Below, one piece after another: positions 44,632 through 63,910 of a stretch of 64,000 nucleotides of DNA (the stretch's first letter is position 1; every line of letters begins with the position of its first letter). A program made the position numbers and the translations under genes. Origin of the DNA: a virus; the IMG/VR virus record IMGVR_UViG_3300031656_000001, one strand, 5' to 3'. The notes below the pieces were generated by a model, which saw only the letters and a program-made list of their open reading frames with translations, ran no database searches and had not been told where the DNA came from.

Positions 44632-44634
44632 TTA

Positions 44635-45378: not shown

Positions 45379-45411
45379 AATTGTTATTTATTTAGATAAT
45401 GATATTTGAAT

Positions 45412-45439
45412 ATTATACCTATAACTATGAAATAGTTTC
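45412..45439 (-). promoter_or_regulatory. class II promoter GAAACT-N16-TATAAT
   Basis: Recurrent motif upstream of clamp/polB. Confidence 0.6.
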
Positions 45440-45441
45440 AT

Positions 45442-45474
45442 AAAAAAAGGACATACTGTTATGGTATGTCCTTT
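45442..45474 (-). terminator. intrinsic terminator
   Basis: AAAGGACATAC-loop-GTATGTCC followed by T7. Confidence 0.8.
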
Positions 45475-45500
45475 GGTTAATTTTACTTTAAATTTTAATA

Positions 45501-45785
45501 TTATCTAAGACCTAATTCATCTCGTAAATCTTTCCAGTAAAAATCAGCAATGATTTCTTTAACTGTCATTTCATTATTTTCACCCCAATCAGATATGTAA
45601 TCAAACATTACTTCTTGGCTAAAATCGTCTTCGTCTAATTTACCATCCATGAATTCATCTTCATATGAATCATAAATGTCATCTGCAACCTCATCAGTAA
45701 ACACTCTAAGTTTTTTAATGTCTGATGATGAATATTTCTCGTTTAATGTTGAAGCAAATGCTTCAAATAATTTTACATGTTTCAT
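45501..45785 (-). CDS. acidic putative internal head protein (MKHVKLFEAF leader)
   Basis: Leader plus LNE, then an acidic domain. Confidence 0.7.
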   Translation of the reverse strand: MKHVKLFEAFASTLNEKYSSSDIKKLRVFTDEVADDIYDSYEDEFMDGKLDEDDFSQEVMFDYISDWGENNEMTVKEIIADFYWKDLRDELGLR

Positions 45786-45817
45786 AATTATTTTGTTTTG
45801 TTTTGTATTATTTTGTA

Positions 45818-46546
45818 TTATTGCCAGTCTCCGCCGTCAATTGAACCACCATCTATTAAAGATGTGAAATCATCAACTGATGTTACTTCACTTGACCATT
45901 CTTGACCACCGTAGTTATCTTCGTCTGACCAAACTGCAGTACCATCCCAATTGAATGTGTATTCGTTGCCATCATCAAATGGATTTTCACCAACAATTGA
46001 TATAATATCACCATCGAATGATGCATCATATTGATTTTCTAAGTTTTTAAATTCTTTCTTAAGGTTTACTTTAGCTTCGTTGATATTTGCAACAAACGCT
46101 TCGAATAATTTTACGTGTTTCATAATTGTTTTGTTTTGTTTAACATGTTCTGATATTTCATCTGCTTCATAAATAAAAACTGATGCCTTTGATGGTGCAA
46201 CCTCTATTGCAGATCCTACGTAAATTTGAACATACTTGTGTTTTGCTAAATCGACAACTGCGCCCCATTCAGAATATTCAGCTGCATCTTCTTTTCTTTC
46301 TTCAAATGAATCTTCAGGAGCATCTCCGTATTCTATAGATCCTTCTGATTTATGACCATATGCTGTACCATCTGTTAATTTAAAATCGTTCATTTCAAAT
46401 TCAACTTCATCATCATCAAAATCAGGATCTTCTTTTTGTGCTTTTTCTAGTTCTGCTAATTTCTTTTTAGCTGCACCTTGATTTAAATACAAGTGTATTA
46501 CTCCATAATCTGGTGTATTTTCTGTTACTGCGAATGCTTTTGCCAT
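45818..46546 (-). CDS. acidic two-module putative internal head protein
   Basis: Internal MKHVKLFEAF at ATG 46123. Confidence 0.7.
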   Translation of the reverse strand: MAKAFAVTENTPDYGVIHLYLNQGAAKKKLAELEKAQKEDPDFDDDEVEFEMNDFKLTDGTAYGHKSEGSIEYGDAPEDSFEERKEDAAEYSEWGAVVDLAKHKYVQIYVGSAIEVAPSKASVFIYEADEISEHVKQNKTIMKHVKLFEAFVANINEAKVNLKKEFKNLENQYDASFDGDIISIVGENPFDDGNEYTFNWDGTAVWSDEDNYGGQEWSSEVTSVDDFTSLIDGGSIDGGDWQ

Positions 46547-46566
46547 AATATTATATTTTAATTTAT

Positions 46567-46878
46567 TTAGTCCCAGTTTTCTTCTTCTTCTGGCGCATGA
46601 TCATTAACGAAATCTATGAAGTCTTCTGCTGTTTTAATTTTGTCGCCATCATCAGACCTTGCAATCCTTTGGTCTTCACCATTTGCTGTTTCTTCTTCAG
46701 GATACCATGTGAATACCACTGCGTAGTCTTTGTTTTCTTCAAAATCCCATACTGTTATTTGGTTTCCGTCTAGCGTTACATTATGGAAGTAATCTTTGAT
46801 CTCTTTGAATTCTTTCTTATAAGATTTTGCTTCGTTTACTGTTGAAGCAAATGCTTCAAATAATTTTACGTGTTTCAT
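46567..46878 (-). CDS. acidic putative internal head protein (MKHVKLFEAF leader)
   Basis: Leader plus VNE-A; late promoter upstream. Confidence 0.7.
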   Translation of the reverse strand: MKHVKLFEAFASTVNEAKSYKKEFKEIKDYFHNVTLDGNQITVWDFEENKDYAVVFTWYPEEETANGEDQRIARSDDGDKIKTAEDFIDFVNDHAPEEEENWD

Positions 46879-46910
46879 AATTGTTTTGTTTTGTTTGTTG
46901 TATTATTAGG

Positions 46911-46920
46911 TTATATATCT
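46911..46920 (-). promoter_or_regulatory. late promoter AGATATATAA
   Basis: Exact motif upstream of the leader-gene array. Confidence 0.65.
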
Positions 46921-46931
46921 ATTTTTCTTTA

Positions 46932-47020
46932 AACAAAACGAAGCCGGGAAGTAGCGAACCCCCGGCTTCTATCCGAAAACTAGTTTCGGTCCTAAGAGTG
47001 GTATTCAAACCACACCTTTA
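46932..47020 (-). terminator. three-hairpin GC-rich structure ending in a terminator-like stem (possible ncRNA)
   Basis: GTGGT/ACCAC, CCGAAA/TTTCGG and GAAGCCGGG/CCCGGCTTC stems, then GTTTTGTTT. Confidence 0.55.
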
Positions 47021-47022
47021 TT

Positions 47023-48648
47023 TTAACCCTCGCAACTTGAACATTCAAGAATATCTCTTGCAAATGATTGCGCTGAACTTTGACTAAATTGATAGTAAAG
47101 CGTCTTAACGCCTTCTTCATGTGCATATAAATACAATTGATTAATATCCTTTGCTGGTACGCTTGGATGTATCATAATGTTTAACGATTGTGATTGATCA
47201 ATGAACTTTTGTCTCTGTGCCGCTTGTAATACGATTTCTTTTGGAGATAACTCAACAAATGATTTGAAAACTTCTTTAGTTGGAAAGTCTAAGTGTTGGA
47301 CAGATCCATCTCTTTTTAAAATATCTTCCCAAACTTGTGGAGTATTTAAATCATATTTGATTAATTCTTCAATAAGGAATGGGTTCTTATAGATAGTCTT
47401 TGACTTTGCCAAATCTTTAATAAAATAATTAGATTTGATTGGTTCAATACCCATAGAAACTTGTCCTAATATAAAAGAACTTGATTTAGTTGGTGCAACT
47501 GCAAGCAATGTTGTGTTTGCAAATCCAGGTCTAATTGATCTGTAACCTCTTTCGTCATGTAACCATTTAGATGCTTTTTCACTTCTTTCTTTTAAAGTAC
47601 TAAATATATCATGATTTAATCCCTTTGCTTGAATAGAATCAAATGTAATTAATTTAGATTGAAATAACGAGTGGTATCCAAGTACGCCTAATCCCAATGC
47701 TCTGTGTTGTTCAGCAAAACGATGTGCTCTTGCCATACCTGGCATATTTGTAGATTTCTTAACGAATTCATCCATTACTGCATTTAAGAATAATGTGTAT
47801 GTTTCGATTGCATCAGTATCTTTAATTTCATCCCAGTGTAAAAGGTTAATAGAACCTAAGCAACATACGAATGAATTAAAAGAATCTGTTGGTAACTGAA
47901 TCTCACTACATAAATTAGATGCTGTGATTTCTAAACCTAATTCTTTATATGGTGAATTGTTGTTTGAATTATCTTTAAACATAATATAAGGAAAGCCAAA
48001 TTCATTTCTCTTTTGAATAATCTTTGCCCATATTTTACGCTTATCAGAATCTCCAGCTTTCATTTCTGCAATCCATTCATCACCAACAGTAACTCCGAAT
48101 TGTAAGTTTTGAATAGGATTACCTTCACTACCAATATCTAAGAATTCTAAAATATCATTGTGTTCTACTGGTAACCAAGCTGCACATGCTCCACGTCTTG
48201 CTTCTGATTGTTTACATACATCAACTGTTGTATCATACATTCTAGCATAGTGTACTGGTCCATCTGCTGTACCTCCTGTTGAAATATTAGTTCCTCTTGA
48301 TCTAATATTTCCTAAATATACAGAAGTTCCTCCTCCGTATTTTGACATCATTCCTATTTCTCTACTTCCATTTAAGATGCTATCTAATGTATCATCAACG
48401 TTTGATCCATAGCAACTAACAGGAAGTCCTTTATCTTTTCCAAAGTTGATCCAAACTGGAGTTGATAAACTATAGAATCCGCGTTCCATATAATCTTCGA
48501 ACTTTCTCGCAAATCCATCAATTTTTAAATATCTCTCTGCTGTATTTGCGACATCTTTAATTCTTTGCTCTGGGGTTTCGTCAATATAACCCCTTGAAAG
48601 AAATTGCCTACTGTCTTCGTTAAGCCAGTAATTCTTTTCGTATTCCAT
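47023..48648 (-). CDS. nrdA: ribonucleotide reductase alpha subunit (no ATP cone)
   Basis: PVSC, GGGTS, SNLCSEI, VAPTKSSS, DQSQSLN, KTLYY, C-terminal CSSCEG. Confidence 0.95.
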   Translation of the reverse strand: MEYEKNYWLNEDSRQFLSRGYIDETPEQRIKDVANTAERYLKIDGFARKFEDYMERGFYSLSTPVWINFGKDKGLPVSCYGSNVDDTLDSILNGSREIGMMSKYGGGTSVYLGNIRSRGTNISTGGTADGPVHYARMYDTTVDVCKQSEARRGACAAWLPVEHNDILEFLDIGSEGNPIQNLQFGVTVGDEWIAEMKAGDSDKRKIWAKIIQKRNEFGFPYIMFKDNSNNNSPYKELGLEITASNLCSEIQLPTDSFNSFVCCLGSINLLHWDEIKDTDAIETYTLFLNAVMDEFVKKSTNMPGMARAHRFAEQHRALGLGVLGYHSLFQSKLITFDSIQAKGLNHDIFSTLKERSEKASKWLHDERGYRSIRPGFANTTLLAVAPTKSSSFILGQVSMGIEPIKSNYFIKDLAKSKTIYKNPFLIEELIKYDLNTPQVWEDILKRDGSVQHLDFPTKEVFKSFVELSPKEIVLQAAQRQKFIDQSQSLNIMIHPSVPAKDINQLYLYAHEEGVKTLYYQFSQSSAQSFARDILECSSCEG

Positions 48649-48670
48649 GTGTTTTAGTTTTTTAATAATT

Positions 48671-49648
48671 TTAAAATAAATCGTCTTCAGTTATTGACTT
48701 AGACTTCTTGTTGTAATCTACGCTTTTCTTATAAAAGAAATCGCCTTCTTTAGTTGATAGTATCTCTACGTCAAACCATAATGATTTTTCTAATTCAATA
48801 AGATCAATATCAAATATTGATTTCATTCCAATTCTATTTAATGAATTGTTAAATCTGTTTTTAATAAAGTTTTTAATATTTTCTTTAGATAAGAAATCAA
48901 GTTCACCTTTTTCAAATATCCAATCTAATATTTTGCATTCTGCTACATATGCTTTTTTACATGCTGAATCTATTAGTTGTTCGAATTCTTCATCGAACCA
49001 TTCAGGATTCTCTTCTTTAATAATATTGATCAATTCAGATCCAAAGTTTCCATGAATTTCTTCTTCTTTACTTGTAGCTTCGACAACATTAGAAATACCT
49101 TTAAAAAGATTCTTCTCTTTATTGAAAGACATCATAATAAAGAATTGACTAAACAAACTTACATGTTCAATGAATAAAGAAAATAATAACACTGATTTTG
49201 TGTACATTTTATTGTCTCTGCTTCTTGTTCCATCTAAATATTTAGTCAAGTATGCAATTCTGTCTTTAATTGCAGGAATCTCTACAACATGTTCGAACTC
49301 TTTTTCAAGTCCTAAGATTAATAGTAACTGTGCATATGCATCTTTATGTCTTACTTCAGATTCTGCAAATGTCATTCCAACATCTCCGATTTCTGTAATT
49401 GGCATTCTTTTATAAAGATCTGCCCAGAAAGTTTTAACATTTACCTCTATTTGCGCAATCGCAAGCATTGATCTTTTAATAACTTCTCGTTCTTTGGTTG
49501 AAATCTTAGTTTTAAAGTCATCGATATCTGTTGTAAAATTAAATTCTGTATGTATCCAATAAGAATGTCTGATAGCATCTTTATATGCCAAAAGCTGTGG
49601 ATATTGATATGGTAAAATGTTTACTCTTTTTTGAAAAATATCGCTCAT
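48671..49648 (-). CDS. nrdB: ribonucleotide reductase beta subunit (NrdBi / class Id-like)
   Basis: AIAQIEVNVKTFW, ESEVRH..AY, IEHVSLFSQF, EEEIH, DFF. Confidence 0.93.
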   Translation of the reverse strand: MSDIFQKRVNILPYQYPQLLAYKDAIRHSYWIHTEFNFTTDIDDFKTKISTKEREVIKRSMLAIAQIEVNVKTFWADLYKRMPITEIGDVGMTFAESEVRHKDAYAQLLLILGLEKEFEHVVEIPAIKDRIAYLTKYLDGTRSRDNKMYTKSVLLFSLFIEHVSLFSQFFIMMSFNKEKNLFKGISNVVEATSKEEEIHGNFGSELINIIKEENPEWFDEEFEQLIDSACKKAYVAECKILDWIFEKGELDFLSKENIKNFIKNRFNNSLNRIGMKSIFDIDLIELEKSLWFDVEILSTKEGDFFYKKSVDYNKKSKSITEDDLF

Positions 49649-49674
49649 ATAAGTGTTAAGTGTTTTGATGTTAA

Positions 49675-49684
49675 TTATATATCA
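49675..49684 (-). promoter_or_regulatory. late-type promoter TGATATATAA upstream of nrdB
   Basis: Recurrent motif. Confidence 0.5.
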
Positions 49685-49705
49685 ACTAAATATACAATGT
49701 AAGTA

Positions 49706-51124
49706 TTATTTAATTCTATTTAATTTTTTTAATTTCTTTTCTAGCTTAGCAGCCTTCTCGTAATACGCATAAGAGGTCTTTTTATAGTCCTTTCTTTGCT
49801 CATATAAATCTGCTAATATTTTTTTAAGAATAGAATCTTCTTTTTTGAATACCACTCCGTTTTCACAGACAATTACCTTTTTGTCTTTTCGTCTTGTTGG
49901 AATTTCTGCTTCAGGTACTTGCTCAACATATGATTCGGGGGAAATATTAAATTGTCTCATTATTGAAGGATATAGCGATGCAAAATCAAATGCACTTACT
50001 CCACTATAATATCCAACAATTGGTTGCTTAACGAAAGCTCCTTCGAATTTACCTTCTTTAAGAGCATCGGCTTTACCATATTCTACACCAATCTTTTTAT
50101 TCTGTTCTGCAAGTTTTCTTGCAAGTAGTGATTCTGTAATCGCAACAGGTGATGATGCTTTATATAATGGCATCTTAGTAATGGTTGCTAGAGTTAAAAG
50201 AACTTCCATCGATTTTAACTGTTGATCTATATAGTATACTAAACATGAATCGACTACGTTGTAATAAATGTACTTAGTAAAATCATTTTCATATAGTTCT
50301 TGAAGTCCTCCAGAATATTTAATTTTCTTAACATCTAAAACTGCTCCTGAAACAAAGTCTAATGAATTAGATTCTTTAACAGCAACCGATCTATCATATT
50401 TGTCATATAATTGCATGTAATCTAAAATACCCATATGTAATGGACGACTATCCTTTCTATCTAACGCACCAGTGATTGCCACTTGCTCCATATCGATCTG
50501 TAATCGTTTACATCTATTGACTATATACTGCCAATCATAGTTGATGAAATTCCACCCTGTCATCATTGGGAACTTAGGTAAAAACTTATGCAAAAACGTA
50601 TATAACATATTATACTCATTATCAAATTTATGATATGAGAATTCCCAATCTTGGTCGTAGTCTTTGAAATGTTTGTTGGTATCTGCCTGTATTTTCTTCA
50701 TATCTTCCTGAGACATGTCTTCTAATCCTAATACAATTGCTTTACGTTCTGGTGTAATTATTGAAAACGATAGAATTCTAGTTTTAGCTTCTTCTGCTTT
50801 TGGGAAACCATCAACTATTTCTGTTTCAATATCTACAAAGTACGTTCGTGGCATATTAAATTCGTAGATCTCTTCCCTGTCTTTTTCTGGTAGAGAATCC
50901 ATGAAATATAATAAACTAAACTTGTTGAATGATTTAGCGTAACCTCTTTTTAGAGCTCTACCATCCCAATTTCTATATGTTGCATCTTTGTGTTTATCAG
51001 TATCTTTAGTTACTACCCAATTTTGGAATTGATTAACGCCATATCTTTTAAATGATACTTTGCCCTCTTTGTCGTAGTAAGAAATAATTAGTTCCCTGTC
51101 GGTTTGCTCAATATCTAATAGCAT
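49706..51124 (-). CDS. family-B DNA polymerase, N-terminal subunit (3'-5' exonuclease + motif A; gp43A-like)
   Basis: Exo I DIETE, Exo II GWNFINYD, Exo III YNVVD, motif A FDFASLYPSIM; ends in the fingers helix. Confidence 0.9.
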   Translation of the reverse strand: MLLDIEQTDRELIISYYDKEGKVSFKRYGVNQFQNWVVTKDTDKHKDATYRNWDGRALKRGYAKSFNKFSLLYFMDSLPEKDREEIYEFNMPRTYFVDIETEIVDGFPKAEEAKTRILSFSIITPERKAIVLGLEDMSQEDMKKIQADTNKHFKDYDQDWEFSYHKFDNEYNMLYTFLHKFLPKFPMMTGWNFINYDWQYIVNRCKRLQIDMEQVAITGALDRKDSRPLHMGILDYMQLYDKYDRSVAVKESNSLDFVSGAVLDVKKIKYSGGLQELYENDFTKYIYYNVVDSCLVYYIDQQLKSMEVLLTLATITKMPLYKASSPVAITESLLARKLAEQNKKIGVEYGKADALKEGKFEGAFVKQPIVGYYSGVSAFDFASLYPSIMRQFNISPESYVEQVPEAEIPTRRKDKKVIVCENGVVFKKEDSILKKILADLYEQRKDYKKTSYAYYEKAAKLEKKLKKLNRIK

Positions 51125-51592
51125 TTAGTAGTTGTTTTTTTGGCGATTTACATTTTCTTCTGCTTTAGCGAAATAATAGTTGTATGCTGTTTTTGCATCC
51201 AAGCCAATAGAAGCTGCATAGTTAATAAAGAAATGGAGAATATCTACCCATTCCATAAATAATTCTTTCTTATCACCTTCGGAAAGATCTGATACTTTCA
51301 TCGTATCATATTTTGTAAAGTCTTTTTTCCAGTATTTCCAGACTGCATTTCCAGAACCATCTTTAATACCTCCAAGTGCATCTGTCATTTCATGTATCTC
51401 ATCAACTACTGCGTGAGTGTTAACATGCCAGAAATTCATTACCTCTCGTAACGTCATATCTTCAAAGTTAAAACCATAAGTCTGCTCTTGCATCTTTTTT
51501 TGGTTTTCCATGATGTCTGCTAAATGTGTTGTTGATTTGGTGTAAAAGTCTTTTACTTCAAGATCTTTGCATTCATTGTCTATATTTGCCAT
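51125..51592 (-). CDS. dCTP/dUTP pyrophosphatase (T4 gp56-like)
   Basis: NEC..L, DEIHE...ALG, AVWK.WK, E.VDILHF, YY.K..EN..RQ.N.Y match the gp56 pattern. Confidence 0.85.
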   Translation of the reverse strand: MANIDNECKDLEVKDFYTKSTTHLADIMENQKKMQEQTYGFNFEDMTLREVMNFWHVNTHAVVDEIHEMTDALGGIKDGSGNAVWKYWKKDFTKYDTMKVSDLSEGDKKELFMEWVDILHFFINYAASIGLDAKTAYNYYFAKAEENVNRQKNNY

Positions 51593-51646
51593 TTTGTATT
51601 TTTTGTTATATTAATAATATGTGTATTTGATTAATAGTTTCAACTA

Positions 51647-52543
51647 TTATCTGTCCATTTCTAGAATTTGTCCCCATTCTCTTTGAGAGTCTGTTATAAT
51701 TTTTGTTTGATCAGATTCTGGTCTAGGATCTCCACCTACATTCCAGAACCATGCTCCTGGTTTTCCATGTTTCTTCATAAATTCCCATGCTTTTGCATCG
51801 TAGTTATATGCACTTGGAAATGGTGGCATTTGATCAAGACTTACGTTTTGATTAAATGGTTTAGGATGAGACCACATTTCAGCTCTACCTCTTTCACCTG
51901 TTTTGATATTACGAGCAACTGCAACTGCATGAAAATCTGCATCAGGCCATGCAATCTGTAATGATCTTTGTAATACTCCTGTAGAAATTGCTGACCAAAC
52001 TTCTTCTGGATATCCGTGTTTTTCTGCAAGATCATATGCAACTTTCACTGCGGCTGCTGTAACTAATTCGTGCTTAAGTCCTAGTGGAATAAACGTTGCG
52101 TTGTTATCTTCTGCCCATCTTTTAGCATGTGCGTTAAGGTTTGGCATAGCAGCAACTCTTTTAAATTTCATTTCTGCTCCACGTTCAATACATATCGCTT
52201 GATGATCTGAAATTTCTTTTTGTGATGGACTAAATAATACTAATTTTTTATTGTATTTTTCTGCAAGATATGCAAGTGATATACCTGCAAATCCACACCT
52301 TGGCTGTACATATACTAATGTATCTGTTGGTGCTGATTGAACTAAGATATCACCAAACCTGCATTTAGAACCAAATCCCATTAAATCTTCTCTTACGACT
52401 TTAAATCCATCATGTTCTGTGATAACTGGTTCTGAAAATGGATCTTTCCAATCTCCTGCTAAATCTAACCAAGCTTGACGATTTGGCATCATCAGATTAA
52501 TATCTTGATTCATTAGACTTTTTGTGTGTTTGTTATGTGCCAT
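51647..52543 (-). CDS. PLP-dependent enzyme (fold type II) of phage DNA-modification clusters
   Basis: VVREDL..GSKCR, G.AGISLA, IPLG, W.AISTG, YDAKAW, FWNVG. Confidence 0.78.
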   Translation of the reverse strand: MAHNKHTKSLMNQDINLMMPNRQAWLDLAGDWKDPFSEPVITEHDGFKVVREDLMGFGSKCRFGDILVQSAPTDTLVYVQPRCGFAGISLAYLAEKYNKKLVLFSPSQKEISDHQAICIERGAEMKFKRVAAMPNLNAHAKRWAEDNNATFIPLGLKHELVTAAAVKVAYDLAEKHGYPEEVWSAISTGVLQRSLQIAWPDADFHAVAVARNIKTGERGRAEMWSHPKPFNQNVSLDQMPPFPSAYNYDAKAWEFMKKHGKPGAWFWNVGGDPRPESDQTKIITDSQREWGQILEMDR

Positions 52544-52546
52544 ATT

Positions 52547-53224
52547 TTAAAAGTTTGTTTTGTTGCTACCTAAATAACCAGGTGCGGTCATTTCCTTATT
52601 GTGATATTCCATAATTTTATCTCTTGCTTCCACTGCAGTATCTACGATTCTAAATAAGTCAAAATCCGATGGACTCATTTTATTACTTTCCAATACAGTA
52701 TCTTTTAGCCAATCAATTAATCCTGACCAATAATCTTTTCCAACTAATACTATTGGGTATTTTACGTTGTGACCACATTGAGCTAATGTAATTGCTTCAA
52801 ATAATTCATCTAGAGTTCCAAGTCCTCCTGGAAATACAACGAATCCTTGCGAATATTTTAAGAACATTACCTTTCTTGTAAAAAAGTATCTGCATTCCAT
52901 TCCTAAATCAACATATTTGTTCATACCTGATTCAAATGGCAATTCAATGCCAATTCCTATAGAATTACCTGAAACTTCATGAGCTCCGTGATTTGCTGCA
53001 GCCATTATTCCTGGACCTCCGCCTGTAATTACTCCGAATCCTTCACATGATATAAGCTTAGCAAATTCTCTTGCTTCGTTATACCATTTACTACCTTGTT
53101 TTGTTCTTGCACTTCCGAATATCGATACACATGGTACATCTATTTCATTAAAAGTGTCAAATCCTTTTGTAAATTCTCCTTGAATTCTTAGAATTTGCCA
53201 TGCATCATCTGCTTTATTTTTCAT
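52547..53224 (-). CDS. LOG-family nucleotide phosphoribohydrolase (TIGR00730-like)
   Basis: FGSAR, TGGGPGIM, FFTRK, PGGLGTLDELFE. Confidence 0.9.
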   Translation of the reverse strand: MKNKADDAWQILRIQGEFTKGFDTFNEIDVPCVSIFGSARTKQGSKWYNEAREFAKLISCEGFGVITGGGPGIMAAANHGAHEVSGNSIGIGIELPFESGMNKYVDLGMECRYFFTRKVMFLKYSQGFVVFPGGLGTLDELFEAITLAQCGHNVKYPIVLVGKDYWSGLIDWLKDTVLESNKMSPSDFDLFRIVDTAVEARDKIMEYHNKEMTAPGYLGSNKTNF

Positions 53225-53235
53225 CTTGTTTGTAT

Positions 53236-54375
53236 TTATTCGTTAGGGTAATTCTTACCCCAAATGTGACGTGTTGTTTCTGCGTTTACGATAACATCCT
53301 CTGTTGGATGTTTTGCTAAATTAAATGCTCCATCAAAGATCCAAGTATATGGAATTCTTTTAGTGGGAGATTTAATACCATGACTGATTGCGATGTGTTT
53401 GTAAAAAAAACATGTTTTATCCTCTACATTTAACATCGTTTGAGTAGTCATTGGATTACTTGGATGATCTGATAAAACTTGCATTTGTCTAATCCATTCT
53501 TCAGCATGTTTATTCTCTGCTATAAATTGACCATCTTCGTCAATTGAGTATTTTACTTTACCATTTAAGTTTGGTCCTCCAAAGATTTGCATCATACCAT
53601 CAAAATGTCCAGTTCCACCAAAAAGCACTGATTCTGGATCAACTAGATCCGGTCTACTCATTGCAACATATCTTGCAGTGTTTTTACATGGATATAATGG
53701 ACTTCTAAAGTTTTGATGTTCTTTAAAATAAGCTTCTAATATTTTAGCAAATTCCATCATAGTGTATGGTCTTTCTAAATTCTCTAAAATATGAGCCATA
53801 TCTTTGGCTGCTTTTTTAGGTCCTTCTAATAACCAATCCTTAACTATTGTGCCCTTTGGATAATATATTTGAAATAGATCATTACGAGCATGTCTGTTTT
53901 CAACAAAGTGTTTTCTTGTTTTTACTTCACCGTCATTGATCAATCTATTAATAGTTCCCCAATGTTCATTACTAAAAGAAAATACTATTGTATAATATAA
54001 TAGCTTTTCTAAATCTGTTTCATGTTTCATCATATAACAATATGGATGTTCATGCCAGTGTAATCTATGTGAGAATATTTGGTAATCTTCTAAAAGTAAG
54101 CTGTCTTGTCTCTTATCAAAAGCATGACAGAATTCAAAGAATTTATCAAATCTTTCTTCTTGAGTCCAATCCTTCATCCAACTTTCCATTGGTTTTCCCT
54201 TTTTCATTAGGATTTCAGAAGTGCCTTTATATGATATATTGTGTTTGTTCATTTTGTCATTTCCGTTAAATTCAAACAAACTATTTTTTAAAAAGTTTGC
54301 ATTACTTGAACCATTTTTTGGATTAAATTCAATTATAAGTTTCGTATCCTTTTCCAATTCTTGTTCTTTATTCAT
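53236..54375 (-). CDS. aGPT-pyrophosphorylase / amino acid:DNA transferase-like protein
   Basis: DSLL...HR, GGTGHFDGM and NVEDKTCFFYK parallel the aGPT-PPlase1 blocks; adjacent to the PLP enzyme. Confidence 0.55.
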   Translation of the reverse strand: MNKEQELEKDTKLIIEFNPKNGSSNANFLKNSLFEFNGNDKMNKHNISYKGTSEILMKKGKPMESWMKDWTQEERFDKFFEFCHAFDKRQDSLLLEDYQIFSHRLHWHEHPYCYMMKHETDLEKLLYYTIVFSFSNEHWGTINRLINDGEVKTRKHFVENRHARNDLFQIYYPKGTIVKDWLLEGPKKAAKDMAHILENLERPYTMMEFAKILEAYFKEHQNFRSPLYPCKNTARYVAMSRPDLVDPESVLFGGTGHFDGMMQIFGGPNLNGKVKYSIDEDGQFIAENKHAEEWIRQMQVLSDHPSNPMTTQTMLNVEDKTCFFYKHIAISHGIKSPTKRIPYTWIFDGAFNLAKHPTEDVIVNAETTRHIWGKNYPNE

Positions 54376-55594
54376 ATGTCGTTGGTAGTATACTATTTAT
54401 TTTGCTTTTATATTCGGCGGCCGTTAGGTTAACAGATGCTATAACTTTGTCATCTGATGGAAATGATGTGATACCATTGAATGTGTCTACTAGACCTAAT
54501 TCTAACATCGCTTTCTGTCTTCCATATGGATGATCTAATATAAATGAACTGTTCCAAATACCATCAAAGTCTATATGATTATATGCCGCGCCCGGTCTTA
54601 AATAGTTTTCAATCCATCTAATAAAATCACATGCTACATCTTCAGCATTATATGGTAAGCTTCCTGTATCTTCGTATATTCTTGTCATTACTGCATCCAA
54701 GAATTCTTCACTCTTTTTACCTTTCTTTTCAACAGGATCTGCAAGATATCCAATGCATTCTACTGCATTTGTACCATAATAAAACATTGATTCTCTGTTT
54801 ACATATTCTGGATACCAATCTGCTAAATCTGCAAGAACTGCAGCATACTGGAATCTATAAGCTCTTAGGCCATTATCAGCATTCCACTTAAACATCCATT
54901 CTCCGATCTCTCTTAAATCTTTTTTACCGTCACTTCTTAAAAAGACAGCTAAGTCTCTTGAAAGTCTTGGTGCAAATTCACATAAGAAATAATCTCCGCC
55001 TCTTTTGTAAACATATTCAGGTTCTGTAAACGATTCCATACCTACAAAACTATCTTCATTACCTGAAGGCTTTGGTGGTTTAGGAAATGCTGGAAACTGA
55101 TAACCAACTGAAGTATAAAATGGCGTAGGATGATATTTAATAACCTCGCACATTTCTTCAATTGTTTTACATTCATGTAATGCAAAGATAACTGTGTTGT
55201 GATAACCAGATGGTTTGGTAGCATAATTAATTGCACTACCACAAACTCGATGTAGAATAAACAGATATAACCATTCTTCTAATCCAAAGTCTTTGTGCTT
55301 TCCAGTCCAGTTTTTGGCAACTTCTTCTCTTTGAGGGAATATTTTGCCGGCTTTCATGTGTTCCCAATATGGATGATCTTCTGTCCAACCATAAAAACAA
55401 TCGTTTATGATCTGACTAAAACCTGCATATTTTCTTTCCACTACATCATATAAGTGCACGTGTTCCATTAAAGGATCATTCATGCCGCTTTCTTCATGTG
55501 GTACAATACCTAAGTTACTAAGCTCTTGCTGTTTCTTAGCAAGTTCAAAGTATCTCAAAAACTCATCGTAATATTTAGTAGTTTTTATTTCCAT
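54368..55594 (-). CDS. aGPT-pyrophosphorylase / amino acid:DNA transferase-like protein
   Basis: DPLM...YDVVERKYAGFSQ, LHR, F...VLADL, GTNA..CI, AEDVACDFIRW. Confidence 0.6.
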   Translation of the reverse strand: MEIKTTKYYDEFLRYFELAKKQQELSNLGIVPHEESGMNDPLMEHVHLYDVVERKYAGFSQIINDCFYGWTEDHPYWEHMKAGKIFPQREEVAKNWTGKHKDFGLEEWLYLFILHRVCGSAINYATKPSGYHNTVIFALHECKTIEEMCEVIKYHPTPFYTSVGYQFPAFPKPPKPSGNEDSFVGMESFTEPEYVYKRGGDYFLCEFAPRLSRDLAVFLRSDGKKDLREIGEWMFKWNADNGLRAYRFQYAAVLADLADWYPEYVNRESMFYYGTNAVECIGYLADPVEKKGKKSEEFLDAVMTRIYEDTGSLPYNAEDVACDFIRWIENYLRPGAAYNHIDFDGIWNSSFILDHPYGRQKAMLELGLVDTFNGITSFPSDDKVIASVNLTAAEYKSKINSILPTTYE

Positions 55595-55595
55595 C

Positions 55596-55739
55596 TTATT
55601 CTATGATTTTCCATTTGAATGGATTTCTATTTCTTTGATATTGTTCCATAACCCACTCTATATCCTTTGTTTTTATTTCAAACGAATAAGATTCTTTAGT
55701 GTCGTCATGTGGTGTGATGAGTATTTTGTATTTTTTCAT
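55596..55739 (-). CDS. small hypothetical protein (47 aa)
   Basis: Manual translation MKKYKILITPHDDTKESYSFEIKTKDIEWVMEQYQRNRNPFKWKIIE. Confidence 0.55.
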   Translation of the reverse strand: MKKYKILITPHDDTKESYSFEIKTKDIEWVMEQYQRNRNPFKWKIIE

Positions 55740-55742
55740 ATT

Positions 55743-56837
55743 TTAAAAAAGTGACATAGTTTGTTTAATTAATTTAGCATTAGGTTCATTACTGGTTAAA
55801 TCCCATCTGTAATATTCCCTGGCGATATGAACTGATTTTGGCTTTTCCATTACGTCAAATGTTAATTCATTTTTAGAATTATAATAAACTTCTGGATGTT
55901 TATGTGATTGCCAATTATTTCTTTCACACATACTGTCTATACCATCATTGATTTCTTTGACCAATGCAGTTCTTTGTGCCCATGTTCCTGCAAATGGTGT
56001 ATCTTTATAATACCCTGTTTTTGGTAAAGCTCTACTTTCATTTTCAATTGGTAATACATGAACAACTTCTATTTCTTTTATTCCACGTTCGTACATTTCA
56101 CGTAGTTCATTTTCAAAGTCAATTAGTATTGTTTTAACTGAAGCTGACGGGTTACTTTGTCTCATTAAATGGTGTCGCACATCAATGTTGCCCATGTAAA
56201 CCCTAAGAGATTTGACCCATGGGTATATGTATGCATCTAAACCTTTTTTGAGTGCGCCATGCATAGTCAAACCATCATGACGTTGTGTCATATAACCTGG
56301 TGTATACTGACTAAATGAATGGCTATCACCAAAGCACAGTTTATCAGTTTTTTCAATGCAATCAATTCTTGGAATATCTACAGCGCATATTTCCTTTATA
56401 TGATCAACTTGAGAATATCCATCCGGTCGTACATCGCCTAATTGTTTAAACAAATCAGTTCCAGTATGTAATCGTTGATCAATCAACTTGCCAATACATG
56501 GCATGTCATGATGTAAAGAATAAATCAACGTACTGCTAAAAATTCTCATGATTTGATGATATAAATCATCATTAGCGCCTCCGAATATATTGAAGGTACC
56601 TTTGAATTCCATACCATGTTCTAATAGAATTGCATCAAAGTCATCCCAGTTTGTTGTAATATCTGTGATCACTTCTACGTTTTCATAGCCAGCATTCACA
56701 CATTGATTTGCTAGGTGAAATGCCCAACCTGATTTATGCGAGCTAATTTTTGGACTTAATTTACCAACCAATGCTGCTATTCCAATTTTAGCAGACTTAT
56801 CTGAAATATAGTCAGTAAGATATTTGAATTCTGTCAT
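55743..56837 (-). CDS. SGNH/GDSL-like domain protein
   Basis: LCFGDSHS (block I), GNIDVRHH (block III), KSVHI (block V). Confidence 0.6.
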   Translation of the reverse strand: MTEFKYLTDYISDKSAKIGIAALVGKLSPKISSHKSGWAFHLANQCVNAGYENVEVITDITTNWDDFDAILLEHGMEFKGTFNIFGGANDDLYHQIMRIFSSTLIYSLHHDMPCIGKLIDQRLHTGTDLFKQLGDVRPDGYSQVDHIKEICAVDIPRIDCIEKTDKLCFGDSHSFSQYTPGYMTQRHDGLTMHGALKKGLDAYIYPWVKSLRVYMGNIDVRHHLMRQSNPSASVKTILIDFENELREMYERGIKEIEVVHVLPIENESRALPKTGYYKDTPFAGTWAQRTALVKEINDGIDSMCERNNWQSHKHPEVYYNSKNELTFDVMEKPKSVHIAREYYRWDLTSNEPNAKLIKQTMSLF

Positions 56838-56843
56838 ATGTAA

Positions 56844-57146
56844 TTATTTAATAGGATCTTCAGTTTCACCATAACCATGTTTTTCAACATAATTATCAAG
56901 AGCACCTAAATATGCAACCGCATCTAATAGATTATCTTGTTTATAGTTATAAGAGTGTCGGCTTAATTTCAATGCAACAAGTGCAGCATACATATCAGAT
57001 CCGTTAAGATCTTTACCAGTCATGCCATTGAAAACCATAGCAGCTCTACGCATACCTTCTTCAAATGGACCATATTGTCTGGCCTTTTCTTCTGATCGCT
57101 CGTTAACAATTTTATTAGCTTCAGCTAAAATATTTAATTTACTCAT
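56844..57146 (-). CDS. DUF6378-like small all-alpha protein (nucleotide-modification associated)
   Basis: IL.EA..IV...RQYGP...LKLSR...DNLLDAVAY. Confidence 0.7.
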   Translation of the reverse strand: MSKLNILAEANKIVNERSEEKARQYGPFEEGMRRAAMVFNGMTGKDLNGSDMYAALVALKLSRHSYNYKQDNLLDAVAYLGALDNYVEKHGYGETEDPIK

Positions 57147-57160
57147 GTCTCGTGTTTATT

Positions 57161-57188
57161 ATTATATGAAGGTTTGACATTTTGTTTA
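57161..57188 (-). promoter_or_regulatory. class II promoter TAAACA-N16-TATAAT heading the modification cluster
   Basis: Recurrent motif variant. Confidence 0.5.
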
Positions 57189-57262: not shown

Positions 57263-57292
57263 AAAAAAAGCCAAACAAAAAAATGTTTGGCT
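57263..57292 (-). terminator. intrinsic terminator
   Basis: AGCCAAACA-loop-TGTTTGGC followed by T7. Confidence 0.75.
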
Positions 57293-57333: not shown

Positions 57334-58152
57334 TTAATACTCAAATGGAGGTGTTCCGTAATCTGCTCTTTTAACAGCGAACCACATTCTTCCTATAACG
57401 AAATACCAGAATCTATCTGTTTCAATTATATAGTGTTCTCCTTTAGGACTCGTAGACTTATAACCACCTCTTGTGAAGTTCTTAGTTACAGGTACTCCGT
57501 CTTCCCATGTTTTATCAGTTGATTGTGCTTTGAATGATTTACCACTAAATGTAGCTAAATGAATTTCTGGATTCATCTTATCAGATTCCATATCTTCTGC
57601 AAATTGATCTATGCCTCTTGGTTTTTGAGCATCTGCTTCATTAACTTTAGATTCATTAAATGATTTCATCCATTCTGCTAATACATTTCTTGCTTCGCTT
57701 TTACTAAGATCAAACTCTTTTTGTAAATATGGAGCTGCACCAAACATATTGGTTTTACCAGAATCTCTTAGTGTTAATAGAAAGTCATAATAAATTCTAT
57801 CTTGATCTGAAGTTTTATCAACTCTAGATTCGTTTACTTTAGAATAAAGTCCTTTATCTCCGTTCCATTCCCAATCAGCTTCATCAAAACCTTTAAGTTT
57901 TTTAGCTTTTTGATAATCTTCAGATGACAAATGAGATTGTTTAAGATTTACTCCTTCTGATATGAAAGATTCTAATGTTTTTAAGTGTTTCATTCTTTTC
58001 TTTTTCTTTTTATATTCTTCTTCGGCATCGCCACTACCAGCTGGTACATCACCAGAACCTAATGTTCCGTTGCCCGGTAATTCTACTGGACCCATACCTG
58101 ACATTGCTGCGGTTGAAACTGTTTCTGTTAATTTTTTGCTAATATCTGACAT
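57334..58152 (-). CDS. modular putative internal head polyprotein
   Basis: Internal MKHLKTLESFISE; modules separated by xNE; the LRDSGKTNMF module resembles DUF5049. Confidence 0.65.
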   Translation of the reverse strand: MSDISKKLTETVSTAAMSGMGPVELPGNGTLGSGDVPAGSGDAEEEYKKKKKRMKHLKTLESFISEGVNLKQSHLSSEDYQKAKKLKGFDEADWEWNGDKGLYSKVNESRVDKTSDQDRIYYDFLLTLRDSGKTNMFGAAPYLQKEFDLSKSEARNVLAEWMKSFNESKVNEADAQKPRGIDQFAEDMESDKMNPEIHLATFSGKSFKAQSTDKTWEDGVPVTKNFTRGGYKSTSPKGEHYIIETDRFWYFVIGRMWFAVKRADYGTPPFEY

Positions 58153-58153
58153 A

Positions 58154-58474
58154 TTAAGCTTCTAAAAACTTTTTAGCTGCGTCTAATAACTCAGCATATG
58201 TGAACTTACTAGATAATGCATTTGATAAAACAGTTCCATCTTTTTTACCGGAAGCGTACATATCTGTACTATCAAATCCAATTCCTTCTGACCATGGTTT
58301 TTTAGGATCAAATCCTAGATCTGAAGAAAGAGATTGTGCCAATGAAGTGTTTCCTCTAAATTGATCGTCATATGATAATTTATCATCTCCGAATGTAGAA
58401 GGATCTACTGTTTTTCTACCTTCTGTTACTGTTTTCTTTGAGATAAATTCCTCGTATAATTTAGTGCGTTTCAT
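58154..58474 (-). CDS. putative internal head protein (MKRTKLYEEF leader)
   Basis: Start moved to ATG 58474; leader followed by VTE. Confidence 0.65.
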   Translation of the reverse strand: MKRTKLYEEFISKKTVTEGRKTVDPSTFGDDKLSYDDQFRGNTSLAQSLSSDLGFDPKKPWSEGIGFDSTDMYASGKKDGTVLSNALSSKFTYAELLDAAKKFLEA

Positions 58475-58481
58475 AACTGTT

Positions 58482-59531
58482 TTATTTTTGGTATCTTTTA
58501 ATGTCTTTAATACTATCCCAAACCTTCTTGGCACAATCTTTTATATTTCTTTTATGATATGCCATATCATAACCAGCGTTATATTCGTGCGCATCTAGAT
58601 CAGTGTAATGTACATATGTTGAAAATCTATTCAATAGAAAGTCCATGTGTTGCAAAATACCTGATATTTTATATTTATGGCTACCAGTACCTATCAGAAT
58701 ATCACCTTTCGAATCTCTATGTCCGCGAGCATTTGCGTTTGCAATAATCTCACCTATTAATTCTGTCGCTTCTTTAACTTTCTTATCAAGTGGCATTGCA
58801 AGAGCTCGATCTGCTATGATATCTTGATATCTTGCATGTGTTTGTTTTCTAAAGTCTTTATCTGATATGAATGCAGTTGCTCCTTTCTGAGCAGCTTTTC
58901 TTTCATCTTTAAGGTTTACCGTAGAATATCTTGCAGTAAGAATATCTAAATCAAGACAATAGCATATATCTGCAGTTCTTGCTACTTTCATAACAGTATC
59001 TAGACCTGTATTTCCTTTGTCGATTCCTGCTGAATCTTTCCTTTTAGATTGTTGAAGTTCTTGATGTCCATCAACATCAGGTACAATAGTTGCATATTTA
59101 AGGTTAGAACCATGTCGTGTGTATTTATTATCTTTAGCCCAATCAATATTCATCCATTTATTATCTACATTAGTAATTGCCAATAAAGTATTTGCTGGAA
59201 TAATACCACCGTTGTATATTGATATTTCTTCATCTTTATCATATGGATTTTGTATATGGTAATCGTTTTCTTTTTCATCTGTTACAAAGTACATGTATAC
59301 TGCGTTTGCTCGTTTTTCTCTCCTAGCAACCATTGGATCCAATTCGATGATATCTTCATCTTTTATTTTATCTAATTTAAGTTTAGTCATTTTGTAAAAT
59401 GCAGCTGGAAGACCTTCTGGTAATTTATTAGCACCTGTTAATATATTTGCTAATTTAGTAGAAGCAAATGCTTCGTTTAATGATGAATCTGATTCGTTTA
59501 TGAATTGTTCAAATAATTTAATGTGTTTCAT
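58482..59531 (-). CDS. putative internal head protein, paralog of 59564..60556
   Basis: MKHIKLFEQFINE leader; shares blocks with its neighbour. Confidence 0.7.
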   Translation of the reverse strand: MKHIKLFEQFINESDSSLNEAFASTKLANILTGANKLPEGLPAAFYKMTKLKLDKIKDEDIIELDPMVARREKRANAVYMYFVTDEKENDYHIQNPYDKDEEISIYNGGIIPANTLLAITNVDNKWMNIDWAKDNKYTRHGSNLKYATIVPDVDGHQELQQSKRKDSAGIDKGNTGLDTVMKVARTADICYCLDLDILTARYSTVNLKDERKAAQKGATAFISDKDFRKQTHARYQDIIADRALAMPLDKKVKEATELIGEIIANANARGHRDSKGDILIGTGSHKYKISGILQHMDFLLNRFSTYVHYTDLDAHEYNAGYDMAYHKRNIKDCAKKVWDSIKDIKRYQK

Positions 59532-59563
59532 ATCTGTTTTATTATTGTTTTATTATTGTTTTA

Positions 59564-60556
59564 TTACCAAGCGTATGTCATGTCTTCAATTTTCTTGATA
59601 TTATCAGCACATCTTTTTGCATATTCTTTTGCAGATTTACCATACCAATTAGAAGCTTTACCATATGCTTTGATTTCATCTTCTTCTTGTCTAACATAAT
59701 CAGCATATCTAGAGTAGTCATCTAATATATTGTTCATGTGCTGAGAAGCATCTCTTAATTTAACTTCTTTACCTTTTGATGATTTACCAATCATCGGATC
59801 ACCATATCTTGTTTTTTCACCAGACTTTAATCCAGATTTGATTTGTTCTGCTAATGAATCAATTGCATCTGCAACCATTTTGTCTAATGGTAATTTTGAA
59901 GCTTTAGTTGCTAAAATTTCTTGGTATCTTGTCATGTTATCAGATTTGAAATCTTTATCAGATTTGAATGCGATTGCACCTGATTTAGCAGAATTTCTTT
60001 CAGCTCTTATGTTCGCTGTTGAATATTTTTGTTGTAATAATGTTAAATTGATTACAATTGCTCTATCAGCAACTTCTGCAATTCTTTTAACATTATAAAG
60101 TCCCGTTGCATCCCAACCTTTATACTTCTTAGAAATACCTATGGAATCTGCTGGATTATTTCCTGTTCTAATCAATCCTCTTTTCCATGTGTTTTCATAA
60201 AAACTATTATCTCCCGATGCAAGTGCTAATAAATAACCTCCACCTGGTATAACTTTGCTACTTTCGTATGCGTCGCTTGGTGCATATGGATTTTCTTTTT
60301 GATTATCTGAAATATAAAATACGATTGCGTTATCAGACTTCTCTTTATATGCTGTCATTGGATCAGTCACTATAATATCTTCATCTTGTACTTTGTCTAA
60401 CGCTAATTTAGTTTTACCATAAAATGCCTTAGTTAATGATTTGTCAGCTTTAGAGCCTTTACCTGTTAATATGCCCGCTAATATAGCTGAAGCAAATGAT
60501 TCATTTAAAGATTCTGTGAATTCTTCGAATGATTCGAATAAAAATTTGTGTTTCAT
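59564..60556 (-). CDS. putative internal head protein, paralog of 58482..59531
   Basis: MKHKFLFESFEEFTESLNE leader. Confidence 0.7.
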   Translation of the reverse strand: MKHKFLFESFEEFTESLNESFASAILAGILTGKGSKADKSLTKAFYGKTKLALDKVQDEDIIVTDPMTAYKEKSDNAIVFYISDNQKENPYAPSDAYESSKVIPGGGYLLALASGDNSFYENTWKRGLIRTGNNPADSIGISKKYKGWDATGLYNVKRIAEVADRAIVINLTLLQQKYSTANIRAERNSAKSGAIAFKSDKDFKSDNMTRYQEILATKASKLPLDKMVADAIDSLAEQIKSGLKSGEKTRYGDPMIGKSSKGKEVKLRDASQHMNNILDDYSRYADYVRQEEDEIKAYGKASNWYGKSAKEYAKRCADNIKKIEDMTYAW

Positions 60557-62062: not shown

Positions 62063-63910
62063 TTATATATTTTTGATAAATTCATCAAATGTCAAAGTGT
62101 CGTCTTCTGATTCTGTTACGACTCCCATGGACTCTTCTAATTTAGCTTTTAATTCTTTATACATGTTATGTATTGGTTTCGGTGTAAGCTTCTTAAACAA
62201 CTTCTCATCGTCATCTAACATTGCGTTTCTAACCTGTGTTGCTGAAATGTTTTTACCTGTTCTTGGTATTTCATATAATCCGAAATCAGGTCTAACGCCA
62301 AGATCTTCTCTATAAGAATCTTTATTTACTTGGAATCCATAAGTTTTCATTCTATCACTTCCAGTTCCCCATAATACTGGTTCGTATTTAGGTCTCATTG
62401 CATTAAACATGTGATCAATTCCGCCTGTCGGTATTACAAATACTTCTTCTATAGGATATTTGCTTTTTAGATTCTTAATCATTTCGACTTGTGTTTCTTC
62501 GTCGAATGGTCTCTTAAATGCATCTTCTGCTTTTTTAGTCTTAGACTTAACTAAGAATATTACAACAGGAAATCCATTCTGTTTGTGAATTGTTTCTATA
62601 ACTTTAATATGTCCTAATGTAAACGGTTGAAATCTACCAACAAACATGTTAACTGGTGTTTTACCTTGTTCTGGATAATTAACTGTCAATGCTTCTAATA
62701 TTGGAGTTTCTGTATACTGCAGTTTTTGATTAACTAAATATGATTTAAAGTTCATAACATCATTTTCATTGGTTTTCGCCATAACTGACGTTTCAATAGC
62801 ATCTACTATTGAATTGATCTGATTCATTAAATCTTTATTAATGATGTCAGTTTCTTTGTGTCTTGTTTTTCTAAAACTGCCTAAAGCAATTTTAAATAAT
62901 TCTGATAAGATTTCATTCTGAACTAATGATAAAGTCTTTTCATTTTTTATGAATACTTTATTAAGTTCAAAACCTTTCCTTTCTGAAAAATCTGCAGAGT
63001 TGAAATTAGTGCCGACATATTTTGTTGCGTTCTTTTCAACATACGCATTAAATATATTAGAGATTATTTCAATGTATCTTGAATCAGCCTCTTCTTCTTC
63101 TAACTTAATAGCAGTAATGTCAAACGCAGTAATAAATTCTACCAAATCCAAAATTGAAAGTTGGTACATATCAGATGGTTTTCTTGCTTCTTGTGGCTTT
63201 CTATCAAATCTCTCCAATTTAAAGCTTTTCATGCCTTTACCATCAGAGAAATTAATTATTAAACCATCAATGTCATTATCTAATGAATGATTTAACGCTG
63301 GAGTATTAAGTCCATTGTTGAATATGTTGTATATTGTTCTTGTAAAAGATTGTGATCCGTATTTGATTTCAAAATCTTTATCTGATATTTCTAGAAGATT
63401 AAGTAGATCATCCTTTTGATTAGATTGTAGTTTACCTTGGAATATAACAGGAGGTCTTTGTGCTCCTAATAGATCTGCCCATTTATTTAAAATAACAGGA
63501 TCTCTAATAACCTTTTTGACTTGTGTTAAATCATTTGGTTTTAATATTTGAATATGTGTTAATATTAAATGATTTTTGGGTAAAGCATCGTATTCAATAT
63601 CTACCGTTTTATTATCTAACATATAATCAAATCCAAACTTCCAATCCAATGGCATATCTTCAGTCAATTCTGTTAATATAGTATTGAAATACTTAATACC
63701 ACTTTCATAGTATTTAATCATCGTCCTGTCTACTCTGTCCATTGCATGTTTTGAACCACTTTTGAAGTATTCAAACCCTGTTTTAGTTCTTTTAACATGG
63801 AAAGATGACGCTTGTATCTTTTCTGATACGACACATGGAATATCTAACATTGACACGAAGTCATTGATGTTAGATGATTGATAATACGTTCTTAAGTTTT
63901 GTAAAGCCAT
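62063..63910 (-). CDS. degenerate RNA-ligase-like domain fused to a cytidylyltransferase-like nucleotidyltransferase
   Basis: N-terminal VSEKIQA...DGLII...FK; C-terminal FVGRFQPFTLGH...GSDR...ISATQVR. Confidence 0.7.
   Translation of the reverse strand: MALQNLRTYYQSSNINDFVSMLDIPCVVSEKIQASSFHVKRTKTGFEYFKSGSKHAMDRVDRTMIKYYESGIKYFNTILTELTEDMPLDWKFGFDYMLDNKTVDIEYDALPKNHLILTHIQILKPNDLTQVKKVIRDPVILNKWADLLGAQRPPVIFQGKLQSNQKDDLLNLLEISDKDFEIKYGSQSFTRTIYNIFNNGLNTPALNHSLDNDIDGLIINFSDGKGMKSFKLERFDRKPQEARKPSDMYQLSILDLVEFITAFDITAIKLEEEEADSRYIEIISNIFNAYVEKNATKYVGTNFNSADFSERKGFELNKVFIKNEKTLSLVQNEILSELFKIALGSFRKTRHKETDIINKDLMNQINSIVDAIETSVMAKTNENDVMNFKSYLVNQKLQYTETPILEALTVNYPEQGKTPVNMFVGRFQPFTLGHIKVIETIHKQNGFPVVIFLVKSKTKKAEDAFKRPFDEETQVEMIKNLKSKYPIEEVFVIPTGGIDHMFNAMRPKYEPVLWGTGSDRMKTYGFQVNKDSYREDLGVRPDFGLYEIPRTGKNISATQVRNAMLDDDEKLFKKLTPKPIHNMYKELKAKLEESMGVVTESEDDTLTFDEFIKNI

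Follow-up and report, generated by a model that had tools for sequence, protein, structure and literature searches.

A candidate phage operon for hypermodification of 5-hydroxymethylcytosine with a proposed acyl-activation step

Introduction

The thymidine hypermodification pathways of phages M6, ViI, PaMx11, PhiW-14 and SP10 involve a dUMP hydroxymethylase, a 5-hydroxymethyldeoxyuridine (5hmdU) DNA kinase (5-HMUDK), an amino acid:DNA transferase (AADT) of the aGPT-PPlase family and a pyridoxal phosphate (PLP)-dependent decarboxylase, and a paralogous transferase pair is the usual state of the AADT/aGPT-PPlase family (PMC8989533). In the PaMx11 transferase gp46, Glu243 binds a metal and Cys247 clamps the base, and a DNMT1-like cysteine mechanism was proposed by its authors (PMC11472151). 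All amino-acid and amine modifications of DNA in the literature covered here are on thymidine and kinase-dependent; those described on cytosine consist of sugars or carbamoyl groups. Here, we analyze a gene cassette that joins both worlds, an operon on the minus strand at positions 51,125 to 57,188 of a 64,000-nucleotide stretch of virus DNA (IMG/VR record IMGVR_UViG_3300031656_000001; the whole stretch is hereafter the window).

Like M6/ViI-type systems, the cassette combines paired AADT-fold genes carrying a Glu-x3-Cys motif, a fold-II PLP enzyme and a link to a thymidylate synthase (TS)-fold hydroxymethylase. Unlike them, its hydroxymethylase, as seen in relatives, is of the dCMP type and a normal thymidylate synthase is kept; a P-loop DNA kinase was not found in the records searched; a hybrid of β-glucosyltransferase (BGT) and SGNH domains is the constant partner; and the two transferases, A and B, each form a sequence family of their own, in which no similarity to tested AADTs was detected. 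Since neither the kinase nor a 5hmdU source was found, we do not class the cassette as an M6/ViI-type member. With T4 glucosylation of 5-hydroxymethylcytosine (5hmC), it shares a dCMP hydroxymethylase (gp42, in relatives), a dCTPase (gp56) and a homolog of the BGT N-terminal acceptor domain, whereas an SGNH domain stands in place of the sugar-donor domain and no complete glucosyltransferase is encoded in the operon. A study of 5hmC carbamoylation has reportedly described phage DNA in which the hydroxymethyl oxygen of 5hmC bears an acyl-type group, and this serves as a precedent. Carbamoylation differs from the cassette in its enzyme family, and PMC8670742 makes no mention of SGNH or aGPT-PPlase genes. 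A literature search, which did not cover subscription papers, found no description of the cassette.

Results and discussion

The window is part of an 80-kb virus contig with an estimated completeness of 26%, encoding a T4-type capsid, portal and terminase as well as a split family B DNA polymerase. Given these T4-type genes and the 256-kb genome of G003, the only complete relative examined, we regard the source as a jumbo T4-like phage. Eight genes are contiguous on the minus strand, with intergenic gaps of -8 to 54 nt, and encode, in order, a DUF6378 protein, the BGT-SGNH hybrid, a 47-residue open reading frame (ORF), transferases A and B, a LOG-family enzyme, the fold-II PLP enzyme and a gp56-like dCTPase, ahead of the N-terminal half of the polymerase. 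All ORFs that an earlier note on this DNA placed in this run are present in the claimed order, and its calls of DUF6378, LOG, fold-II PLP enzyme and gp56 were confirmed by profile matches.

We show that a core of the hybrid, A and the PLP enzyme co-occurs in all 30 locus clusters (defined at 95% identity in A) with enough flanking sequence despite shuffled gene order, and survives reordering in a distant lineage whose polymerase is undivided. Very likely, the operon hypermodifies 5hmC by some route, and the product is probably a cytosine modification without prior chemical description. This upholds the earlier proposal of a DNA hypermodification operon with a probably different activation chemistry.

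Target base

The earlier observation that the window holds neither a hydroxymethylase nor a 5hmdU DNA kinase is correct and extends to the 80-kb contig; a search of relatives recovered dCMP-type hydroxymethylases but no kinase. In eight loci of a distant T4-like lineage, T4 gp42-like genes (54-60% identity) lie within 1.5 kb upstream of A, and in the jumbo relatives G001, G003, G017 and G023 a more diverged TS-fold enzyme is encoded near ClpP and ClpB. G001, G003 and G017 also keep a normal Asn177 thymidylate synthase, and the complete G003 has no third TS-fold gene. In E. coli ThyA numbering, Asp177 is diagnostic of dCMP, an acid at 143 of a non-methyl product and Asn169 of hydroxylases, and the 5hmdCMP-synthase signature consists of Cys146, Asp/Glu143, Asp169 and Asp177 (PMC13326640). 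All non-canonical TS-fold genes linked to the cassette carry this signature (D143, D169, D177), as do those of Aeromonas phages 44RR2.8t and 25. Because the relatives encode a dCMP-type hydroxymethylase, the target base in the source genome is probably 5hmC rather than 5hmdU. The gp56-like dCTPase/dUTPase gene of the operon (51125..51592, minus strand; phrog_173, E 2e-13; 30-35% identity to T4-type gp56), present in 23 of the 30 clusters, fits a 5hmC pathway. A 5-hydroxycytosine base of the RB69 type was rejected since D169 is kept. We found no dUMP hydroxymethylase that could supply 5hmdU, the non-canonical TS-fold enzymes of the relatives being dCMP-type; TET/JBP enzymes were not searched for.

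The 5hmdU DNA kinase model PF18748, which matched the M6 and ViI controls, had no match in the source contig, in 28 cassette-bearing and 18 hydroxymethylase-bearing related records (mostly fragments, one complete), or in 44RR2.8t and phage 25, and ViI gp243 had no match in the complete G003. A short guanylate-kinase-like gene at 5584-6057 of the window was rejected as a DNA kinase, as its matches are to ordinary guanylate kinases, with none to PF18748 or ViI gp243; it could have a role as a nucleotide monophosphate kinase.

Three side observations concern the hydroxymethylase loci. In G001 (L148, L051), frameshifts that most likely stem from sequencing errors affect all of the genes for hydroxymethylase, ClpB, polymerase and clamp as well as nrdA. 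In G042 and G043 (L244:5425-5856, L245:9282-9701), the hybrid and hydroxymethylase genes are closely preceded by a gene for a small HhH-GPD glycosylase, which may repair deaminated modified cytosine. G041 (L248:11087-19725) has a related hydroxymethylase without the hybrid, among kinase-like, glycosyltransferase-like and nucleotidyltransferase-like genes, and this cluster is a different modification kit.

The BGT-SGNH hybrid enzyme

The 364-residue hybrid (55743..56837, minus strand) was characterized by HHalign, residue conservation and gene fusions. Its residues ~1-125 align to the N-terminal acceptor domain of T4 BGT (HHalign P 94%, E 1.4e-7, 103 columns), and in a search with a hidden Markov model of that domain two members of the hybrid family rank first among all locus ORFs. 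In the BGT structure, this domain lies on the side of the flipped 5hmC. The similarity does not extend to the C-terminal UDP-glucose-binding domain, the full-length comparison to BGT giving a P of only 6%. Instead, the C-terminal half carries the SGNH blocks G170-D171-S172, G194, G216-x-x-D219 and H337, each conserved at 88-100% over 150 distant members. Pfam GDSL/SGNH and BGT models match few family members, and weakly (best GDSL/SGNH E 2e-4), and PDB sequence searches with hybrid-enzyme alignments returned nothing significant. SGNH domains are known as O-acyltransferases in OatA, PatB and AlgX, and we propose that the hybrid is a putative 5hmC-DNA O-acyltransferase. The earlier note, which named an SGNH-like potential acyltransferase or esterase, had overlooked both the BGT-type acceptor domain and the transferase fusions described below.

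The hybrid family comprises 684 clusters at 50% identity, and the gene is present in 30/30 locus clusters and never missing where A is present. Seven long members are fusions to family A, and two further members are fused to clade-1-like domains, including ORF233c of 44RR2.8t. In an unrelated phage, one such fusion gene stands alongside DUF6378, the PLP enzyme, an Asp177 hydroxymethylase and the dCTPase, and the hybrid and hydroxymethylase genes of G042 and G043 are direct neighbors. The cultured Aeromonas phages 44RR2.8t and 31 have the same hybrid fused to an aGPT-PPlase-like domain (ORF233c), together with a D143/D169/D177 gp42 and no kinase that we could find. The ORF233c transferase belongs to an inositol-associated family, and no homolog of A or of the cassette PLP enzyme was detected in these two phages. 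Directly upstream of the fused gene of 44RR2.8t (L001:5366-9346) lies a sodium:solute symporter gene, whose product may import the donor, possibly inositol. In Aeromonas phage 25 (L002:4764-8035), the hybrid follows a UDP-galactopyranose mutase and a glycosyltransferase-like gene, and no AADT-fold gene was detected in that genome.

Transferases A and B

Transferase A (54368..55594, minus strand, 408 residues) is a core component and transferase B (53236..54375, minus strand, 379 residues) an optional one; both are assigned to the AADT/HhH fold from their predicted models (pLDDT, predicted local distance difference test, 83.5 for A and 78.6 for B) and the residues E318 and C322. In a structural comparison with 48,161 solved chains, the PaMx11 glycine:DNA transferase gp46/PUGT (8z2m) ranked first for A as well as B, with Z 8.5, a root-mean-square deviation (rmsd) of 4.0 and 209 aligned residues for A and Z 8.9, rmsd 4.1 and 224 aligned residues for B. 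HhH glycosylases and a queuine salvage hydrolase followed, with Z up to 7.2. Only this wide search resolved the fold, as Foldseek found no PDB match to either protein at E<=0.001. Among predicted structures, A reaches a template modelling score of 0.70 to an Atlas cluster with PF18723 members and matches AADT and clade-1 members in BFVD and Atlas, and the Atlas neighbors of B carry PF18723/PF18724.

E318 and C322, which correspond to E243 and C247 of gp46, are invariant in both families, and the catalytic Glu-x3-Cys on the C-terminal helix, matched by motif, has equal spacing in A, B, M6 gp51 and M6 gp55. Given this invariance and common spacing, both A and B look catalytic. Identity to gp46 is 7-13%, and the residue after the Glu is Asp in A and B and Thr in gp46.

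Neither A, B nor the 364-residue hybrid has a Pfam family, and the Pfam aGPT-PPlase clade 1, 2 and 3 models found no match in A, B or 84 family A members, so that we consider A and B to be divergent clades. The earlier assignment of both proteins to the AADT/aGPT-PPlase fold hence stands on structure, including its HhH-like character, while the suggested comparison with the three clades failed at the level of Pfam models. A and B have no significant sequence or profile similarity to each other, and we call them paralogs on the basis of fold and common catalytic motif rather than sequence. In environmental phages, families A and B are both common, with 952 and 457 clusters, respectively, at 90% identity; neither protein had a match among 50,697 phage records.

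The divergence of the two paralogs, which the earlier note had called unusual, is real, although having a pair is itself usual for the family (PMC8989533). B is present in 18 of the 30 clusters, and the tree suggests several losses, so that an obligate A-B heterodimer, one of the arrangements that note had envisaged, is unlikely.

PLP enzyme and donor modules

The fold-II PLP enzyme (51647..52543, minus strand; PF00291 weak, phrog_7093 E 2e-39) is encoded in 30/30 clusters with an invariant K60. Its profile matches the decarboxylase M6 gp52 at E 6e-7, a distant relationship that is still the closest to a functionally tested phage protein, and the PHROG family matched shares its label with M6 gp52. 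Among PDB sequences, cysteine synthases alone matched, and weakly (E 0.009). Judged by homology, it probably decarboxylates the DNA adduct. The only cultured phages with a close homolog (34% identity) are the Erythrobacter phages R6L and ZS04 and the Microcystis phage Mae-JY30, in which these genes are annotated as DNA methylases.

Some relatives exchange part of the cassette. In G031, G034 and G036, the hybrid is retained in the slot flanked by DUF6378 and the dCTPase, and A, B and the PLP enzyme are replaced by a module of inositol-1-phosphate synthase, a small HAD-like ORF, an FkbM-type methyltransferase and a 44RR-type AADT-fold gene (L243:6923-12368 in G036; also L242 and L247). Such a swap is what one would predict if the activator is constant and the donor module varies, and the content of the module suggests an inositol-substituted cytosine. 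In G003 (L249:12120-14400), two inserted genes, for a GT2 glycosyltransferase and a UDP-galactopyranose mutase, separate the PLP gene from the dCTPase, and a sugar may thus be a further addition in some relatives.

Proposed pathway and alternatives

We infer all reactions, the acyl donor and the amino acid from folds, motifs, co-occurrence, fusions, the hydroxymethylase type and the absence of a known kinase. A dCMP hydroxymethylase encoded elsewhere in the genome, as in the relatives, would make 5hm-dCMP while the gp56-like enzyme would remove dCTP. The hybrid would then bind 5hmC via its BGT-type acceptor domain and use Ser172 to acylate the hydroxymethyl oxygen, and the resulting ester would take the place of the phosphate installed by the kinase in thymidine pathways. 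Transferase A would add Cys322 to C6 and expel the carboxylate leaving group, after which the amino acid would attack the exocyclic methylene; B may perform the equivalent reaction in another sequence context or with another donor. Finally, the PLP enzyme, whose homology is computed and whose reaction is predicted, would decarboxylate the adduct to a charged amine, and newly made phage DNA would be protected from host nucleases. This full route, with O-acylation of 5hmC by the hybrid standing in for the kinase step, exchange of the ester for an amino acid by the transferase and decarboxylation by the PLP enzyme, is in our judgment evenly poised between right and wrong.

Several observations weigh against it. 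The canonical D-x-x-H triad acid is absent from the SGNH domain, with no Asp three residues before H337, although the invariant E331 may serve in its place, and the hybrid protein of the window itself has no significant PDB or Pfam match for that domain. Sequence and profile comparisons of A or B with M6 gp51, M6 gp55, ViI gp247 and the 44RR domain are not significant, and Z scores of 8.5-8.9 are modest for helical proteins. The source contig, at 26% completeness, contains no TS-fold gene or hydroxymethylase, and only one hydroxymethylase-bearing relative (G003) behind the inference of the base is complete; a highly diverged kinase could have been missed among records that are mostly fragments. 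Finally, Aeromonas phage 25 and Tenacibaculum phage PTm1 encode the hybrid without a detectable transferase. The hybrid can therefore act outside the proposed route, and acylated 5hmC or a sugar may be the end product in these two phages.

This last point bears on a different role for the hybrid on the same target, which we consider possible though rather unlikely: it would acylate 5hmC at other sites as an end product, or acylate or trim the group added by the transferase, with activation coming from an unrecognised enzyme or from direct water loss in the transferase. Phages 25 and PTm1 would fit such a role, as would the distance of ~75 kb between the hybrid and both A and the PLP enzyme in G043 and the PaMx11 pathway, whose final step is an acetyltransferase (PMC8989533). 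However, its BGT-type domain suggests that the acceptor is hydroxymethylcytosine itself, the hybrid accompanies A in 30/30 clusters and stays constant when the donor module turns to inositol, and the cassette has no other conserved candidate activator. Should activation by the hybrid, addition by A and the 5hmC target all hold, the PLP enzyme might still act like a cysteine synthase, by β-replacement or elimination, making the donor or reshaping a serine adduct. That its only PDB sequence matches are cysteine synthases and its similarity to M6 gp52 is distant speaks for this variant; we find it improbable, given that the closest functionally tested phage relative is a decarboxylase with an identical PHROG label.

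A conventional thymidine pathway, with A and B acting on phosphorylated 5hmdU and the dUMP hydroxymethylase and kinase encoded in the unsequenced 74% of the genome, would agree with the action of all tested AADTs on 5-phosphomethyl-deoxyuridine (5-PmdU), with the dCMP deaminase-like gene that adjoins A in some distant loci and with the incompleteness of the contig. We hold it to be quite improbable, since the TS-fold enzymes of the complete G003 are limited to a normal thymidylate synthase and one of dCMP type, no kinase was found there, and every non-canonical TS-fold enzyme beside the cassette has Asp177. It is harder still to credit that no base is modified and that A and B are HhH-fold repair glycosylases among unrelated metabolic genes: glycosylases and the queuine salvage hydrolase do appear among the lower structural matches (Z up to 7.2), yet both proteins match an AADT best, their catalytic Cys motif does not vary, and the PLP and hydroxymethylase partners are in keeping with hypermodification logic. 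We take hybrid-mediated activation of 5hmC as our best model.

Operon layout and neighboring genes

A promoter-like site, TAAACA-16-TATAAT, lies at the operon head (57161..57188, minus strand; motif scan). The site at about 57161 named in the earlier note is thus present, and a similar AAACA...TATAAT site recurs just upstream of DUF6378 in most related clusters, whereas the promoter scan by itself does no better than chance, with 57 sites against an expected 60. A terminator-like hairpin with a 9-bp stem and a T tail (57269..57292, minus strand; consensus match only) closes the upstream unit. The first gene encodes the accessory DUF6378 protein (56844..57146, minus strand; PF19905, E 9e-12), present in 25/30 clusters and also beside the fused hybrid-transferase gene in the unrelated phage, and the conserved 47-residue ORF (55596..55739, minus strand) has homologs at the same position in 16/30 clusters.

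The LOG-family nucleotide phosphoribohydrolase (52547..53224, minus strand) carries the PGG-x-GT-x-x-E motif and belongs to both PF03641 (E 2e-31) and TIGR00730 (above cut-off). The gene occurs in 5/30 clusters, is absent in the closest relative, L003, and stands beside thymidylate synthase in G001. On this distribution, we rejected it as a pathway member and regard it as a mobile passenger, so the pathway role hinted at by its insertion is unlikely; with a usual transferase pair and a passenger LOG gene, two of the three features earlier called unusual turn out to be ordinary.

A second promoter-like site at 51614-51643, in the 54-nt gap before the dCTPase and polymerase genes, may allow these genes to be transcribed separately as well. 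The N-terminal half of the split family B polymerase (49706..51124, minus strand; family matches) has its C-terminal counterpart at 43423-44631, and between the halves (window 43423-51124) lie nrdB, nrdA, three small genes and a clamp-like gene. The nrdAB genes of relatives are either 84-93% or only 28-39% identical to those here, implying two ribonucleotide reductase types swapping in the same slot. Lineage-specific gene runs at 57334-60556 and 45501-46878 have in common a short N-terminal motif, M-K-H-I/V-K-L-F-E, with two tandem paralogs among these genes at 58482-60556, and a 615-residue protein with a cytidyltransferase-like domain at its C terminus is encoded at 62063-63910.

Implications

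Taken broadly, a widespread class of phage enzymes would activate 5hmC in DNA by O-acylation rather than phosphorylation, and interchangeable AADT modules would install amino acids, amines or inositol on cytosine, a generalization for which we see about as much reason to believe as to doubt. If true, the cassette would make the first amino-acid or amine hypermodified cytosine by a new DNA-base activation chemistry, and would provide enzymes for labelling 5hmC, a base of interest in epigenetics. It would also add a new base chemistry to phage-host defence and offer an explanation of how 5hmC could be decorated in Aeromonas phages that carry gp42, 44RR2.8t among them.

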